From IMG/VR virus record IMGVR_UViG_2606217102_000007: a stretch of 7,098 bases of DNA; one strand, written 5' to 3'. Positions 1,406 to 7,098 of this stretch are shown here, piece by piece. The translations under genes were made by a program, and so were the position numbers. Below the pieces are notes generated by a model that saw only the letters and a program-made list of their open reading frames with translations, did no database searches and had not been told where the DNA came from. Origin of the DNA: a virus. Lineage: Duplodnaviria > Heunggongvirae > Uroviricota > Caudoviricetes. Every line of letters begins with the position of its first letter. Position 1 is the stretch's first letter.

Positions 1406-1431
1406 AAAGACGGTTTAAATGATGCGCTTAC
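1406..1431. repeat. IS66-family terminal inverted repeat (outer end at 1431)
   Basis: Sequence ...gacggtttaaatgatgcgcttac; reverse complement begins GTAAGCG. The inner boundary is approximate because the partner repeat is outside the window. Confidence 0.6.
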
Positions 1432-2770
1432 CAGCCTCGGGAGTTAAATCTCCTTTATTTAGAACGTTTTTAAGGCGCGTTTGAGTTGCATGTGTTGCCA
1501 TTTTTGCATAATCAGCTTTTCCCGCTCTCCATGCTGAAGCATCTTTTGGGCTAAGTCCTTTCGCTATAGATTTACTAAGGCTATTGGTTAGCGAGTTGTA
1601 GACCCTGTCGACCATTGTTTGCGACATTGATGGCAGAACTGTACGATCGCCTTTTACGTCAATGCGGAACTGAGTTCTCAGCTTATCAAGTAACTCAAAG
1701 GCATCATCTCCATTTGTTATCTCCTGAATGGCATTCTTATAATCATTAAGCGCAGAAATGGTCTGGGTGTCAGAAACACCTTTAAGTTTCCCAAGTTCGT
1801 TTACTGCTCCGTCGATAGCTCTTATGGCGCCACTTGTATCAACTGGCTTTCCAACCATTCTTCCTGACAGGTTGTTTAGTTTTGACTTGGCTAACGATTT
1901 TTCCCTTGCAACGCCTGACTTTAGACTATCAACGACTACAGATGGATCGTAGTCGCCGTATTTTTCGGTGAAGCGATTAACAAGCTTGGTTCTAGCATCC
2001 TGCTGTGCGGCTCTCATTGGTCCAGTCCCAGCTATGACTCCTTCTGAGTAACCCTGCAGTTGATTGCCAAGTTTTGTTTTTGGAGGAACTACATCCGATG
2101 TCATAACTGGTACATCTGCCGCAGCGGCACGCTTGAGCAATTGCTGATCTGCTGGTGATATTTCGCCACGAACAGCAGTAATTCCACGCCCTATTCCCTT
2201 TGCTGCTGCGGAAAGAACCCCCTGAGCGGCAAGGTTAACTCCGGCATTTATGGCTGCATTTTGCGCGAAATCACCTTTCTGGTTTGCGGCCTCTGCCAGT
2301 GATCCAATAGCCATGCTTCCTGCCGTTCCAACTCCTGGAACTAAATACCCGCCAATTGTTTCTCCAGCTTGCGCGTAGGGGTCTGTCGGTCTGTCTACTG
2401 GACGATAAACATCATCCAATACTTTTGGCCCACCAAGCCCCTGACTGATTGCATTAATCAGACTTGCGCCACCCTGCAATACGTCAAATGGTATGTTTAC
2501 CAGACCGCGACCAGCCTGCTCTGCAATTTGCCCTGCACTTTGACCACCAGTGAGCCAATCGCCAGCTTGTTGCATCAATGATGGTTCTTCTTTCTGCTGC
2601 TGAGGTGGAGGGTATGCTGCATAAAACTGATCTCTTGCTTCAGCCCATTTGTCACCAGCCTTAGGGGCAACAACCTCATCAAAATATTGCGCTTGAGCCT
2701 GTGCTTTCTGTTCTTCAGTTAACGCCTGATACTGTGGAGAGGCGATAACATCTTTCCATGCTTTAGCCAT
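1415..2770 (-). CDS. Phage DNA-ejection (DNA transfer) protein, P22 gp16-like, with 3' end replaced by the IS insertion (native sequence 1432-2770; last codons and stop come from the IS repeat)
   Basis: 451-aa ORF whose final residues GKRII and stop are encoded inside the IS terminal repeat (stop = complement of 1415-1417). Third gene of a gp7/gp20/gp16-like cassette; P22 gp16 is about 609 aa, so roughly 150 C-terminal residues would be missing. Start overlaps the upstream stop as TAATG at 2768-2772. The family call rests on synteny, size and composition only. Confidence 0.55.
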   Translation of the reverse strand: MAKAWKDVIASPQYQALTEEQKAQAQAQYFDEVVAPKAGDKWAEARDQFYAAYPPPQQQKEEPSLMQQAGDWLTGGQSAGQIAEQAGRGLVNIPFDVLQGGASLINAISQGLGGPKVLDDVYRPVDRPTDPYAQAGETIGGYLVPGVGTAGSMAIGSLAEAANQKGDFAQNAAINAGVNLAAQGVLSAAAKGIGRGITAVRGEISPADQQLLKRAAAADVPVMTSDVVPPKTKLGNQLQGYSEGVIAGTGPMRAAQQDARTKLVNRFTEKYGDYDPSVVVDSLKSGVAREKSLAKSKLNNLSGRMVGKPVDTSGAIRAIDGAVNELGKLKGVSDTQTISALNDYKNAIQEITNGDDAFELLDKLRTQFRIDVKGDRTVLPSMSQTMVDRVYNSLTNSLSKSIAKGLSPKDASAWRAGKADYAKMATHATQTRLKNVLNKGDLTPEAGKRII

Positions 2771-4134
2771 TAATCACCCCATAGTGAAGAAAAGTTACTG
2801 CCGGCTGCTGGCTGTGATACCTGTGTAGGTTGAGATTGCTGCCGCTGAGATTTACCAACATTAACGTTATATTGTTGGTTGTAATTGTCGGTATATTGCT
2901 GAATGTCGCGCATTGATTGTTGCAGTGCTTCAGGGCTTGAGAAATCAACCTGTGGCATACCTTGAAAATACATCTTTGCTTCTGCAACGGTGTTGATACC
3001 GGATGCCCCCATGTCTCTGGCTGCTGCAATGCCCTGATTCTGCATCTTTCCTTGGATTCGCTGTGCAGCGTTGTATAGTTTCCTCTGATCACCACCAGAT
3101 GCACGGCTACGAATATCTGCACCAAGAGCAGGAGAACCTGAAGAGCCTGTAATGCCAGTCATGAAGCCAAGATCGTCAATTGATGCACCAGAAATTGCAT
3201 CAAGATCTTTCTTCATTGCGTAATTCTGCGCGCTTGCTGCCGATGTAGCCGGAGCGGCAATAGAGCCAGCAGGAACGCGAACCATATTCCCCTCGTTGTC
3301 GATACCTTCGTAGAACGCATTAGCCCCAGCGCCGTGAAGCTTCCCGCCTACCGTTACAGTTCTGCCATCTGCTAACTGAACTGTACGCTCATTATTCCCA
3401 ACCGACCCTTTCATTGATGCTCTCTGCATCGATAAATCCTGACCGCGCATCGTGATATTCTGACCGCGTGCTGTTAGCGCCTCTCCAGCCTTATTGCTGC
3501 GGATTGTCTCTGCCAGTCTGCCTCGGTCAATCTCACGACCAGCTATCTTGTCCTGAACAGCAAACGCCTTTTCTGGCCCAAGTGCACCGAGAGACATAGT
3601 AGTCAGCATGTGTGATAGCTGTTCTGGATTCTGGATACCTGTCTGAATCATCCAGTCAGCATTCGCACCCACGCGATTTAACCTGTCCTTGTTGTCAGTA
3701 ATGAATTTACTGTAGGCTTCCGGTCCCTGAGAAAGAGCGACGTTAGCCCTCATGGCTAAATCGCCCATATCGTTGCGTTGCTGCTCATTAAGACCGGAAA
3801 ACGCCTGTTGTGCCTGTGCAACAAACGCTGGATTTTCCTGGGCAAACTTAAATAGTCCCGATGGATCACCAGAAGCCCATGCATCAGCGTGAACCTTATT
3901 GAACGCCCTAATAGCTTTCTGTTGCTGTTCCTGATTGTAAATATCAGCAACTCCAGCCAGACCACGTAACGCGGTCAGACCAACGTTATTTGCACCTGAT
4001 CGAGCCAATTCATTGTTTTCGCGGATCAGACCAAGCGTTGCGTTAATGTCGCTTGCCTTTGGCGCATTCTCATTTTGCGTACCGATGCCAGCCAGAAAAC
4101 CACCAGAATTAATACCCTGTTGCCACGTAGCCAT
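2770..4134 (-). CDS. Phage DNA-ejection (DNA transfer) protein, P22 gp20-like, 454 aa
   Basis: Long intact ORF between the gp7-like and gp16-like genes; the size matches P22 gp20 (about 471 aa). The complement of 4139-4146 gives an AAGGGG ribosome-binding site upstream of the ATG. Gly/Ala/Gln-rich with a Q/N-rich C-terminus. Assignment is by gene order and size, not by sequence search. Confidence 0.55.
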
Positions 4135-4143
4135 GATTACCCC

Positions 4144-4545
4144 TTAAAACAACGAGCCAAGCAGACCAAGACCGCCACCAACAGCGGCACCAATACCAGT
4201 ACCAATACCAGGAACAATGCTGCCAAGTTTTGCTCCAGCAATTGCTCCAGAGGCAGCCCCGCCTATTGCAGATTGAAGGCCGGAAGGTCTATTAGCGTTT
4301 GCCGCCGCCAGTGCCGCGCTTTGCTGTGAAATCTGGCTCATGTTGTTGGCATATGTTTGCCCGGCATTTGCCTGCCCCTGAAGCGCGCCAAGACCAATAT
4401 TTGCCAGATTCTGGTAGTTGTTCATTTGTCCAGATAGCCATTGCTGACCAAGCGTTGGTGCGATTGTTGCTAACTGATTACTGGTTGAGGTGGAACCCAA
4501 TCCACCTGTTGCTTCCGCTGCCGCCAGACTCTGATATTCGCTGAC
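4144..4545 (-). pseudogene. 5'-truncated P22 gp7-like ejection protein gene (C-terminal ~130 codons native; the ORF-track N-terminal ~50 codons are read-through into unrelated DNA)
   Basis: The ORF-track protein (4144-4695) opens with an aberrant W/C/H-rich stretch (MAWWMASSSALWRVPLNGISRLGSNPITFPSSTIVLTSRSFHHCHGTGC), then switches to A/G/Q/N-rich sequence ending in a Gly-zipper-like hydrophobic tail. Those first ~150 nt are antisense to a plus-strand exonuclease-like frame. Confidence 0.5.
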
Positions 4546-4732
4546 AGGGCAGCCAGTTCCATGGCAGTGGTGGAATGACCGCGACGTAAGAACAATCGTC
4601 GAGCTTGGAAAGGTAATAGGATTCGACCCTAAGCGAGATATGCCATTCAAAGGAACTCGCCACAACGCGCTTGATGATGCCATCCACCAAGCCAAATACG
4701 TTTCAGCAATCTGGAAAAAATTAGCTAAATAA
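4535..4732 (+). pseudogene. 3' fragment of a DEDDh-family 3'-5' exonuclease gene (final ~65 codons including the Exo III-like motif)
   Basis: Plus frame open from 4535 (in-frame TGA at 4532-4534) to TAA at 4730-4732: ...WNDRDVRTIVELGKVIGFDPKRDMPFKGTRHNALDDAIHQAKYVSAIWKKLAK. H-N-A-L-D-D-A resembles the Exo III motif (H-x-A-x-x-D-A) of DnaQ-like exonucleases. No N-terminal Exo I/II region is present, and the next gene's RBS and ATG follow 16 nt later. Confidence 0.45.
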
Positions 4733-4748: not shown

Positions 4749-5042
4749 ATGCCAGCGCCTTTGTATGGTGCGGATGACCCGCGCCGCTGTTCCGGCAAAT
4801 CAGTATCGGAGGTGCTGGATAAATTCAGAAAAAACTACGACCTGATAATGTCGCTACCGCAGGAAACGAAAAAGGAAAAGGAATTTCGCCACTGTATATG
4901 GCTTGCAGAGAAAGAAGAACGCGAGCGAATTTACCAGACATCAATCCGACCATTCCGTAAAGCCACATATACCCACTTCCCTGAAATTGACCCGCGCCTG
5001 CGTAATTACCGCTCACGCTATGGCGCTATCAGTAATGACTGA
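4749..5042 (+). CDS. Hypothetical prophage early-region protein, 97 aa, highly charged
   Basis: ATG preceded by an AGGAG RBS; the stop at 5040-5042 lies inside the next gene's RBS (tGAGGAa), indicating operon organisation. No family recognised. Confidence 0.6.
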
Positions 5043-5052
5043 GGAATTTACC

Positions 5053-5217
5053 ATGAGAGGACTTGCATACAATCCCGGCATTCTTCCGGCAGAAATGATT
5101 ATTCGCCAACGCGTAAAGCCAATGCCATCGAGAGAGGAATTGCTTAAGAGAAATTCTTTTCCATCAGTGAATCAAAACAAATATCTGAATGCAATGTGGC
5201 GGAGTTGGAAGAAATGA
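5053..5217 (+). CDS. Hypothetical small basic protein, 54 aa ([54 protein letters not shown])
   Basis: ATG at 5053 with a GAGGAA RBS 6 nt upstream. The ORF track extends the same frame back to 4903, but that would overlap the 97-aa gene; the internal start with an RBS is preferred. Its stop overlaps the next start as ATGA. Confidence 0.4.
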
Positions 5218-5645
5218 AACAAATGTCACTAATTGAGATGGATGGATTTCTGAAAGGTAAATGCATCCCACGAGATTTAAAGGTTAACGAAACAAACGCT
5301 GAATATCTGGTGCGTAAATTTGCTGAAGCGGAGGCCAAGTGCGCGGCGCTGGCAGCGGAGAATGCGGGGATGAAGTCTGGCGCTATGGACGAAATCAAGG
5401 TTATCAACCGTGGAGGGCAGGCATATTGTGTAAAAGATGGAGTGCAAGTTAATCCCATGTATGCAAGAGGGTGGAATGACTATCGCGCAAAGTCTATGCA
5501 ATCAGACACCCCAGCCACCGATGCTTTTCTGGCTGAAGTACGAGCGCAAGGCGTGGAGATGTTTGCGGAGTGTGCATACACACTTGAACATCATGATCAC
5601 GCAGTAGCTTTTGCCGCCGAGCTGCGCAAAGGAGGCAACCAGTGA
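5214..5645 (+). CDS. Hypothetical prophage protein, 143 aa from ATG 5214 (ORF track gives a GTG start at 5196); contains four Cys and an EHHDH cluster
   Basis: ATGA overlap with the upstream stop; GGAG 9 nt upstream of ATG 5214. Its stop (5643-5645) overlaps the next gene's GTG start as GTGA. No family confidently recognised. Confidence 0.6.
5632..5637 (+). promoter_or_regulatory. Ribosome-binding site (AGGAGG) for the 5642 CDS
   Basis: aaAGGAGGcaaccaGTG; strong Shine-Dalgarno sequence 4 nt upstream of the GTG start. Confidence 0.6.
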
Positions 5646-6395: not shown

Positions 6396-7098
6396 ATGAT
6401 TCACTATCACGGTGGGCCTATTACTCCGGATACGTGCGCCATGAGAGCATGGAAAGGGCGACATGCGTTTATCAGTTTTGCGCATTCAGGCCAGATCAAT
6501 CTCGCGGCTGAATACTGTCAGTCGTTCGCGCTGGACAACGGTGCATTCACCGCCTGGAAAGCAGCTGGCAAAAACAAAATCGACTGGAGCGATTACTACG
6601 AGTTTGTTGCTCGCTGGAAGAATCACCCAGGATTCGATTTTGCCATTATCCCGGATGTTATTGATGGCGGAGAGGAGAAAAATGATGCGCTTCTGAATGA
6701 GTGGCCTCACGGAAAACTAGCTGGCGTTCCAGTGTGGCACATGAATGAAAGTGACGAGCGATTTATTCATTTGTGCAATGAGTTTCCGCGAGTGGCTATC
6801 GGTAGTTGTGGCGACTATGACGTAAAGCGCCCAACTCTTGCGGTAGCCAGAATGAAAGACCTGATTCGTCACATTGTTGATGAGCATGGTCAGCCGGTTA
6901 CGAAACTACATGGATTGCGCATGTTAAATCCGCAGATATTCACAAAATTACCCTTAGCCAGCGCAGATAGTACGAACGTCGCTCGAAACATCGGTATTGA
7001 TAAAGCCTGGTCTGGGGCTTATGCACCTGCAAGTAAAGAGACACGCGCAGCATTAATGGTAGAACGGATTGAGGCACACAATAGCCCTGGTTCTCTTG
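6396..7098 (+). CDS. TGT-superfamily protein, candidate DpdA-like 7-deazaguanine DNA transglycosylase (first 234 codons; continues past window end)
   Basis: ATG at 6396 with AGGAG 6 nt upstream, open to the window end, so absent from the ORF track. Motif order and spacing parallel bacterial Tgt: LDNGAF (D47, 6534-6536) vs TDSGGF; AIIPDVIDGG vs IVMIFDEC; RVAIGSCGD vs YAVGGLAVGE; KLHGLRMLNP vs YLMGVGKP; ADSTNVARNIG (D191, 6966-6968) vs FDCVMPTRNARNG, the nucleophile-Asp motif. No Zn-binding CxCxxC is seen in the portion present. Confidence 0.55.
   Translation, partial: MIHYHGGPITPDTCAMRAWKGRHAFISFAHSGQINLAAEYCQSFALDNGAFTAWKAAGKNKIDWSDYYEFVARWKNHPGFDFAIIPDVIDGGEEKNDALLNEWPHGKLAGVPVWHMNESDERFIHLCNEFPRVAIGSCGDYDVKRPTLAVARMKDLIRHIVDEHGQPVTKLHGLRMLNPQIFTKLPLASADSTNVARNIGIDKAWSGAYAPASKETRAALMVERIEAHNSPGSL

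Follow-up and report, generated by a model that had tools for sequence, protein, structure and literature searches.

A P22-type ejection-protein cassette cut by a 24.5-kb prophage deletion and by an IS679 insertion

Introduction

A 7,098-nucleotide (nt) stretch of tailed-phage DNA (IMG/VR record IMGVR_UViG_2606217102_000007, hereafter the window) carries on its minus strand three successive genes whose order and sizes recall genes 7, 20 and 16 of phage P22, the genes for the proteins that are ejected ahead of the phage DNA. A preliminary description had assigned them to such a cassette from synteny, size and composition, and had placed the cassette in a degraded prophage. The locus thus raises two questions: are the three genes truly related to the P22 ejection genes and, if so, is the cassette a working module or what is left of one? 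The window corresponds to an entire draft contig (JNQO01000082.1 of assembly GCA_000704165.1) that ends inside a multi-copy insertion sequence (IS), IS679. As described below, the three genes are homologs of 7, 20 and 16, only the middle one is complete, and the locus most probably derives from a temperate podophage of the P22 type (Lederbergvirus), the distal part of whose late operon has become a non-functional fossil in three steps. We put the probability of this reading at roughly 0.93.

Virions of intact P22 contain the ejection (E) proteins and release them ahead of the DNA (PMC8402733, PMC4992974); the released proteins assemble on the gp10 tail hub into a trans-envelope channel. In situ cryo-electron microscopy places a dodecamer of gp7* on the gp10 hub, where it docks via a "fingertip" formed by residues 90-126; each monomer folds back to supply two helices of a 24-helix bundle and has a V-shaped C-terminus in the outer membrane. 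The gp7 dodecamer builds the sleeve outside the cell and contributes to the outer-membrane pore (bioRxiv 10.64898/2026.09.03.749273). According to the same study, gp20 is also dodecameric: its N-terminal 47 residues enter the gp7 sleeve, it spans the periplasm, and it gives 12 of the 36 outer-membrane helices and lines the pore; gp16, which is less well resolved, constitutes the cytoplasmic-membrane part (bioRxiv 10.64898/2026.09.03.749273). A passage of this preprint describes gp16 as able to act in trans between co-infecting particles (bioRxiv 10.64898/2026.09.03.749273).

Results

Identity of the three genes

On the evidence of sequence comparison, all three genes are homologous to the ejection proteins of P22-type phages (Lederbergvirus). 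Direct BLASTP alignments with the P22 proteins give 91% identity for the product of the gene 7 remnant (against gp7 residues 99-188), 80% for the full-length gene 20 product (against gp20, 471 aligned columns) and 53% for the product of the gene 16 remnant (against gp16 residues 53-433). Identities to the Sf6 proteins are 82% for gp11, 49% for gp12 (over the N-terminal 245 residues only) and 38% for gp13. These were the alignments that the preliminary description had proposed as a check, and they place its assignment on direct homology. Neither of the two outcomes named there as contrary to the proposal, namely a lack of homology to ejection proteins or a clear likeness to tail fibers, was encountered, and we found no evidence contradicting the identification of the cassette.

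Profile searches gave a similar picture, with E-values that leave chance resemblance out of the question. The gene 20 product matches Pfam PF16928 (Inj_translocase, described as the DNA/protein translocase of the P22 injectosome) with E = 3.8e-118 at profile positions 1-217 of 218, and phrog_917 (released from the phage upon infection) with E = 1e-210 over its full length. It is 100% identical to the corresponding protein of strain EC0026B and shares 450 of its 454 residues (99%) with gp12 of coliphage JEP4. Relative to P22 gp20 it is 17 residues shorter, the gap facing P22 residues 236-251. The gene 7 remnant matches Pfam PF25688 (P22_gp7; E = 4.8e-64) only at profile positions 101-230 of 230, and the 183-amino-acid open reading frame (ORF) in which it lies matches phrog_598 (DNA ejection). 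The remnant is equivalent to residues 102-231 of JEP4 gp7, with 96% identity in the alignment (residues 100-231), and lacks the native start codon, the ribosome-binding site and the first ~101 codons. As to gene 16, its remnant matches phrog_770 (DNA transfer protein; E = 1.8e-174) at profile positions 2-479 of 668, and 447 of the 451 residues of its ORF (99%) are identical in JEP4 gp13, a protein of 621 amino acids. The Pfam set used here, which holds no gp16 model, gave no match for gp16, and NCBIfam gave nothing for any of the three ejection proteins; the gp16 assignment therefore rests on PHROGs, on the direct BLASTP alignments and on a precomputed match to Pfam PF26808 (Phage_P22_gp16) recorded for the contig. 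The variability of ejection proteins, to which the preliminary description had drawn attention, corresponds to a known mosaicism (PMC8954989). In RefSeq, these genes already bear the label "DNA transfer protein" or are marked as pseudogenes; in kind, the finding is a known one.

Layout of the cassette

The phage-derived cassette occupies positions 1432-4536 in the canonical order 7-20-16. It is read from three successive minus-strand ORFs, at 4144-4695 (183 amino acids), 2770-4134 (454 amino acids) and 1415-2770 (451 amino acids), and both of the coupled junctions reported beforehand were found as described. Gene 20 stops and gene 16 starts within a TAATG spanning 2772-2768 (context GAT TAATG GCT), the overlap being one base, and the stop codon of gene 7 is separated from the ATG of gene 20 by a 9-nt spacer, GGGGTAATC, at 4143-4135. 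P22 is laid out alike: its genes 7 and 20 are 10 nt apart, and its genes 20 and 16 share one base (gene 7, 9369-10058; gene 20, 10069-11484; gene 16, 11484-13313). The P22 products measure 229, 471 and 609 amino acids, as quoted in the preliminary description. Thus, order, strand and tight coupling of the junctions are those of a P22-type cassette. The integrity of the genes and their setting are not. Judged by homology, genes 7 and 16 are pseudogenes, cut on either side of a complete gene 20, which agrees with the initial impression of an intact middle gene between two damaged ones. The late-operon context (10-26-14-7-20-16, with a late promoter and an antiterminator) is missing as well: 5' of the gene 7 remnant lie an exonuclease gene remnant and abc2, both on the opposite strand, and sister strains are arranged likewise. 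Limits of 1432-4545 had been proposed for the cassette; the start is exact, being the first phage base after the IS, and the end overshoots the true junction (4536/4537) by 9 nt. Coordinates of all features are collected in Table 1.

The gene 7 break

The break in gene 7 was located by a three-way comparison between the window, JEP4 (for gene 7) and phage mEp235 (for the exonuclease gene). The crossover falls between 4534 and 4537, at a dinucleotide common to both sides, and the 2-bp microhomology indicates illegitimate recombination. What lies across the junction is the 3' end of a 3'-5' exonuclease gene, identified by a match to Pfam PF16473 (E = 7.6e-22) at profile positions 118-177 of 177; the DNA of this region is 96% identical to the exo-abc2 region of mEp235. 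The exonuclease gene belongs to the early-left operon and is annotated as a pseudogene by RefSeq in EC0026B. Read in antisense, it supplies the spurious first ~50 codons of the ORF at 4144-4695, which is therefore a chimera. The missing interval measures ~24.5 kb on the JEP4 map and ~24.4 kb on the P22 map. It begins in the exonuclease gene, just upstream of abc2, and takes in immC, the replication genes, nin, Q, the late promoter, and the lysis, terminase, portal, scaffold and coat genes, and it extends through genes 4, 10, 26 and 14 up to codon ~101 of gene 7. Among 5,426 complete E. coli genomes, four strains (EC0026B, E100341, AST19 and AST205; eight records in all) have this junction with 100% identity.

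The gene 16 break

At the other end, gene 16 is interrupted by IS679. Over the first 1,431 bases, the window matches annotated copies of IS679 from a number of E. coli chromosomes and plasmids with 100% identity, and the gene order tnpA-tnpB-tnpC with the domains proper to the IS66 family is in place, tnpC being only partly within the window. Members of the IS66 family have terminal inverted repeats that begin with GTAAGCG and produce an 8-bp target-site duplication. Here the putative terminal inverted repeat, which on the minus strand is GTAAGCGCATCATTTAAACC..., finishes at base 1431; the IS end reads GTAAGCGCATC... from 1431 down to 1421, and the other IS end and any target duplication lie outside the contig. 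Ungapped homology with the uninterrupted gene 16 of EC0026B and JEP4 begins exactly at 1432. The ORF at 1415-2770 thus encodes gp16 residues followed by five IS-encoded residues (GKRII) and a stop codon in the IS end, and gene 16 is deprived of its last 175 codons (28% of the protein, at the C-terminus).

The IS679::gene 16 junction was not found by megablast in complete E. coli genomes, nor did exact-match scans of genome contigs and metagenome contigs return it. An exact-protein look-up recovered the 451-amino-acid fusion product three times, from the draft or raw assemblies GCA_000704165.1, GCA_000713785.1 and Logan SRR1186684, in all of which the contig bearing the junction ends inside the IS. 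Since the junction occurs in three draft or raw assemblies and in no complete genome, it is real and younger than the deletion. It could serve as a lineage marker.

The remnant in sister strains

A remnant of ~15 kb sits between dacD and sbcB in strains whose sequence is 99.96% identical to that of the window. When the window is compared with EC0026B, 5,667 nt contain 2 substitutions, neither of them in the cassette. In EC0026B, the remnant begins with a hypothetical gene, the tailspike gene, an Arc-family gene, immI-like genes and a helix-turn-helix (HTH) repressor gene, and continues with a full-length gene 16 (621 amino acids), gene 20, the gene 7 pseudogene (annotated "missing N-terminus" by RefSeq), the exonuclease pseudogene, abc2, the early-left genes and the integrase gene. 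The map of this locus lacks genes for portal, coat, terminase and lysis proteins, and it shows neither replication genes nor immC. A search of the host genome for portal, coat and tailspike genes had been suggested; made on the remnant of these near-identical strains, it finds the tailspike gene present and the other two absent, and with the integrase gene kept and the head and packaging genes gone, "degraded prophage" proves an apt description.

Directly downstream of gene 16, both EC0026B (locus 7569-8210) and JEP4 (locus 2641-3210) have a divergent gene for an HTH or "C2-like" repressor. P22 has sieA in this place, and the window stops at the IS before reaching it. E100341 and AST205 show IS3-family elements inside the DNA-transfer genes of the remnant (annotated as "DNA transfer protein x4" plus IS3 transposases); the remnant is therefore being hit by IS elements independently from one lineage to another.

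Another P22-like remnant, independent of this one but with a very similar central deletion, was noticed at the argW locus of E. coli strain isolateD (~13000-28200). There, 90 nt of the exonuclease gene remain beside abc2 and run into a tail-needle gene that lacks its N-terminal part, while genes 14, 7, 20 and 16, immI and the tailspike gene are kept. The left end point of two unrelated deletions thus recurs in the same small exonuclease gene. This might be due to chance, or to selection for losing kil and the recombination genes while keeping abc2.

Neighboring early-left genes

On the early-left side, abc2 is the first gene that the deletion left intact, which shows that the cassette now abuts the early region. 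It is followed on the plus strand by genes for a DUF2737 protein, a hypothetical protein and an Ead/Ea22-like protein, and by a last, partial gene. The hypothetical protein, whose gene sits between those for the DUF2737 and Ead/Ea22-like proteins, has no match in Pfam or PADLOC.

The partial ORF at the right end is without a Pfam match, and its EC0026B counterpart (251 amino acids) is annotated only as "hypothetical protein". By its PHROG match, it encodes a DpdA-like transglycosylase of the kind that phages use for 7-deazaguanine modification of DNA. In this early-left region of a P22-like prophage, no preQ0-synthesis genes are visible near it. The contig ends 53 nt before the stop codon of this gene, presumably in another repeat shared between prophages.

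Table 1. Position, strand and supporting matches of the features in the window
Feature	Position	Strand	Remarks
Partial IS679 (IS66 family)	1-1431	minus	Runs off the left end of the window
IS679 tnpC, start (first 109 codons)	329 down to 1	minus	LZ_Tnp_IS66
IS679 tnpB	349-696	minus	Pfam TnpB_IS66; NCBIfam IS66_TnpB
IS679 tnpA	696-1346	minus	Pfam HTH_Tnp_1; NCBIfam IS66_access_TnpA
Gene 16 homolog, truncated	1432-2770	minus	446 codons plus one base, of 621; phrog_770
Gene 20 homolog	2770-4134	minus	Intact, 454 amino acids; Pfam PF16928; phrog_917
Gene 7, 3' remnant	4144-4536	minus	Last 130 codons plus stop; Pfam PF25688
Deletion junction	4535-4536		2-bp "TA" common to the gene 7 and exonuclease sides
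3'-5' exonuclease (Rv2179c-like), 3' remnant	4537-4732	plus	65 codons; Pfam PF16473
abc2 (anti-RecBCD)	4749-5042	plus	Pfam PF11043, E = 1.7e-63, full length; phrog_656
Hypothetical early-left protein	5214-5645	plus	143 amino acids; phrog_614, unknown function, E = 5e-52
Partial ORF	6396-7098	plus	234 amino acids seen; phrog_887 (queuine tRNA-ribosyltransferase), E = 9e-99; runs off the right end

Discussion

Origin and present state of the cassette

The history that best accounts for these data comprises three events. A P22-like phage, whose late region is, by DNA comparison, closest to that of JEP4, integrated between dacD and sbcB; a single illegitimate deletion of ~24.5 kb, reaching codon ~101 of gene 7, then fused what was left of this gene to the 3' end of the exonuclease gene; and, in the present lineage only, IS679 inserted after codon 446 of gene 16. 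The resulting cassette is in all likelihood inactive, neither expressed nor functional, because genes 7 and 16 are truncated, the late promoter and the antiterminator gene are deleted, and there is no capsid into which the proteins could be packaged. A consensus scan of the minus strand upstream of the cassette detected no promoter-like site (the window holds 3 such sites, against 7.6 expected by chance), and a scan of the window at Rfam gathering thresholds found no RNA families. That gene 20 is intact would reflect its position between the two lesions and the recency of these, rather than maintenance. The weak points of this reading bear on the inactivity of the cassette: the consensus promoter scan is crude, and read-through from IS679 or from an unseen promoter may occur. 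The contig ends in IS679, which leaves the last 525 nt of gene 16 and any 8-bp duplication out of view. The parent phage is inferred from two mosaic relatives, JEP4 on the late side and mEp235 on the exonuclease side, and the length of the microhomology is therefore approximate.

Could the ejection genes and the tailspike gene have been kept on purpose, by a domesticated or satellite-like element whose proteins enter, for instance, the particles of a superinfecting or helper P22-like phage, or whose truncated gp16 or gp7 poisons an invader's progeny virions as a defense? The intact gene 20, the full-length gene 16 of the sister strains, the retention of 14-7-20-16, immI and tailspike genes by the independent argW remnant of isolateD, and the passage on gp16 working in trans (bioRxiv 10.64898/2026.09.03.749273) would all suit such an element. 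Against it, the deletion cuts two genes in mid-frame at a 2-bp microhomology, which is the signature of an accident; the late promoter and the antiterminator gene went with it, and nothing resembling a promoter replaces them upstream. PADLOC recognizes no defense family in gp20, gp16 or the neighboring early genes, and IS679 has further destroyed gene 16 in this lineage. Moreover, only 4 of the strains with complete genomes carry the junction, divergence between copies is near zero, with no sign of selection, and late genes at the far end, next to attR, are kept merely through their position. Domestication is thus very unlikely. A particular form of it appears very improbable: the products of gene 20 and of truncated gene 16 might be co-packaged in the procapsids of a superinfecting phage as a "poisoned virion" defense, or the genes might act as a recombination reservoir. 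If the former were true, transcription by read-through or by late antitermination supplied in trans would yield progeny with defective injection channels; the more modest variant would make the locus a reservoir for the mosaic exchange of ejection genes.

Two other explanations concern the genes and the sequence themselves, and each has a negligible chance of being correct. One holds that the cassette resembles the P22 genes in size and order only and represents a different virion module (tail fiber, tape measure, transglycosylase or endolysin). Secondary PHROG labels do read "lytic tail fiber protein", "transglycosylase", "tail fiber protein" and "tape measure"; these secondary matches are partial, however, and score 256 versus 583 bits for gp16 and 134 versus 702 bits for gp20. 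A tail-fiber or transglycosylase module is ruled out by the 53-91% BLASTP identity to the P22 proteins. The other explanation, that the join between IS679 and gene 16 or between gene 7 and the exonuclease gene is a chimeric contig, could be entertained since the window is a whole 7,098-bp draft contig ending in a multi-copy IS. It is rejected, as each junction was seen in more than one independent assembly: closed genomes of four strains share an identical gene 7-exonuclease junction, and the IS-fused product of gene 16 comes from three separate assemblies, one of them the independent Logan assembly of raw reads.

The fossil of a late operon thus remains the preferred reading, and its value lies in a correct annotation and in prophage decay resolved to the base in two steps, a 24.5-kb illegitimate deletion followed by IS679. 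The assignment made beforehand from synteny and size turns out to have been accurate to within a few bases. A hazard for annotation must be pointed out: the 183-amino-acid ORF (antisense exonuclease plus gp7) and the 451-amino-acid ORF (gp16 plus IS end) are both chimeric and unfit for propagation. Both chimeras are present in public protein sets, the one as gp16(1-446)+GKRII and the other as a gp7 fragment of 118 or 183 amino acids; in the shorter version, the start chosen by gene callers is an internal TTG at 4500.

Comparison with known systems

The closest complete phage is JEP4 (Lederbergvirus), which is 98.9% identical in DNA to the window over 1428-4536; its proteins JEP4_11, JEP4_12 and JEP4_13 are 96%, 99% and 99% identical to those of genes 7, 20 and 16, respectively, and its immI-like genes downstream are the same as in the EC0026B remnant. 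JEP4 is a complete phage of 39.2 kb whose early-left region differs, with no annotated exonuclease gene beside abc2; the prophage described here is therefore a mosaic relative of JEP4, and not JEP4 itself. P22, unlike the present locus, has gene 14 upstream of gene 7 and a late promoter. Relative to P22, gene 7 has lost the leader cleaved by OpdA, the whole ascending helix and some of the "fingertip" (residues 90-126) that docks on gp10. Phages Sf6, HK620 and CUS-3 have the same cassette in the same order. Matches to HK620 and CUS-3 DNA cover only part of it, and divergence affects gp20 in its C-terminal half and gp16 over most of its length.

A functional analogue is found in the T7 ejectosome, whose three proteins gp14, gp15 and gp16 are likewise ejected and form a pore in the outer membrane, a tunnel through the periplasm and a component in the inner membrane. 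The PDB holds structures of T7 gp15 and gp16. When the three proteins of the window were compared by phmmer with all PDB chains, nothing was returned at E <= 0.001, and the relation to T7 is one of functional analogy only, without detectable sequence similarity. A review lists P22 gp7, gp20 and gp16 as gp14-like, gp15-like and gp16-like proteins (PMC8954989).

Other internally deleted lambdoid and P22-like prophages likewise keep the early genes proximal to the integrase gene together with the late and immI genes proximal to attR. CPS-53/KpLE1, at argW in K-12, is a defective P22-like prophage of E. coli. The isolateD remnant, in which the exonuclease gene has likewise been joined to a late gene, is analogous to the one studied here. 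Both of these argW prophages differ from the latter in the integration site (argW versus dacD-sbcB) and in the end points of the deletion. Compared with both the CPS-53/KpLE1 and the isolateD remnants, that of the present lineage is distinguished by the additional insertion of IS679.

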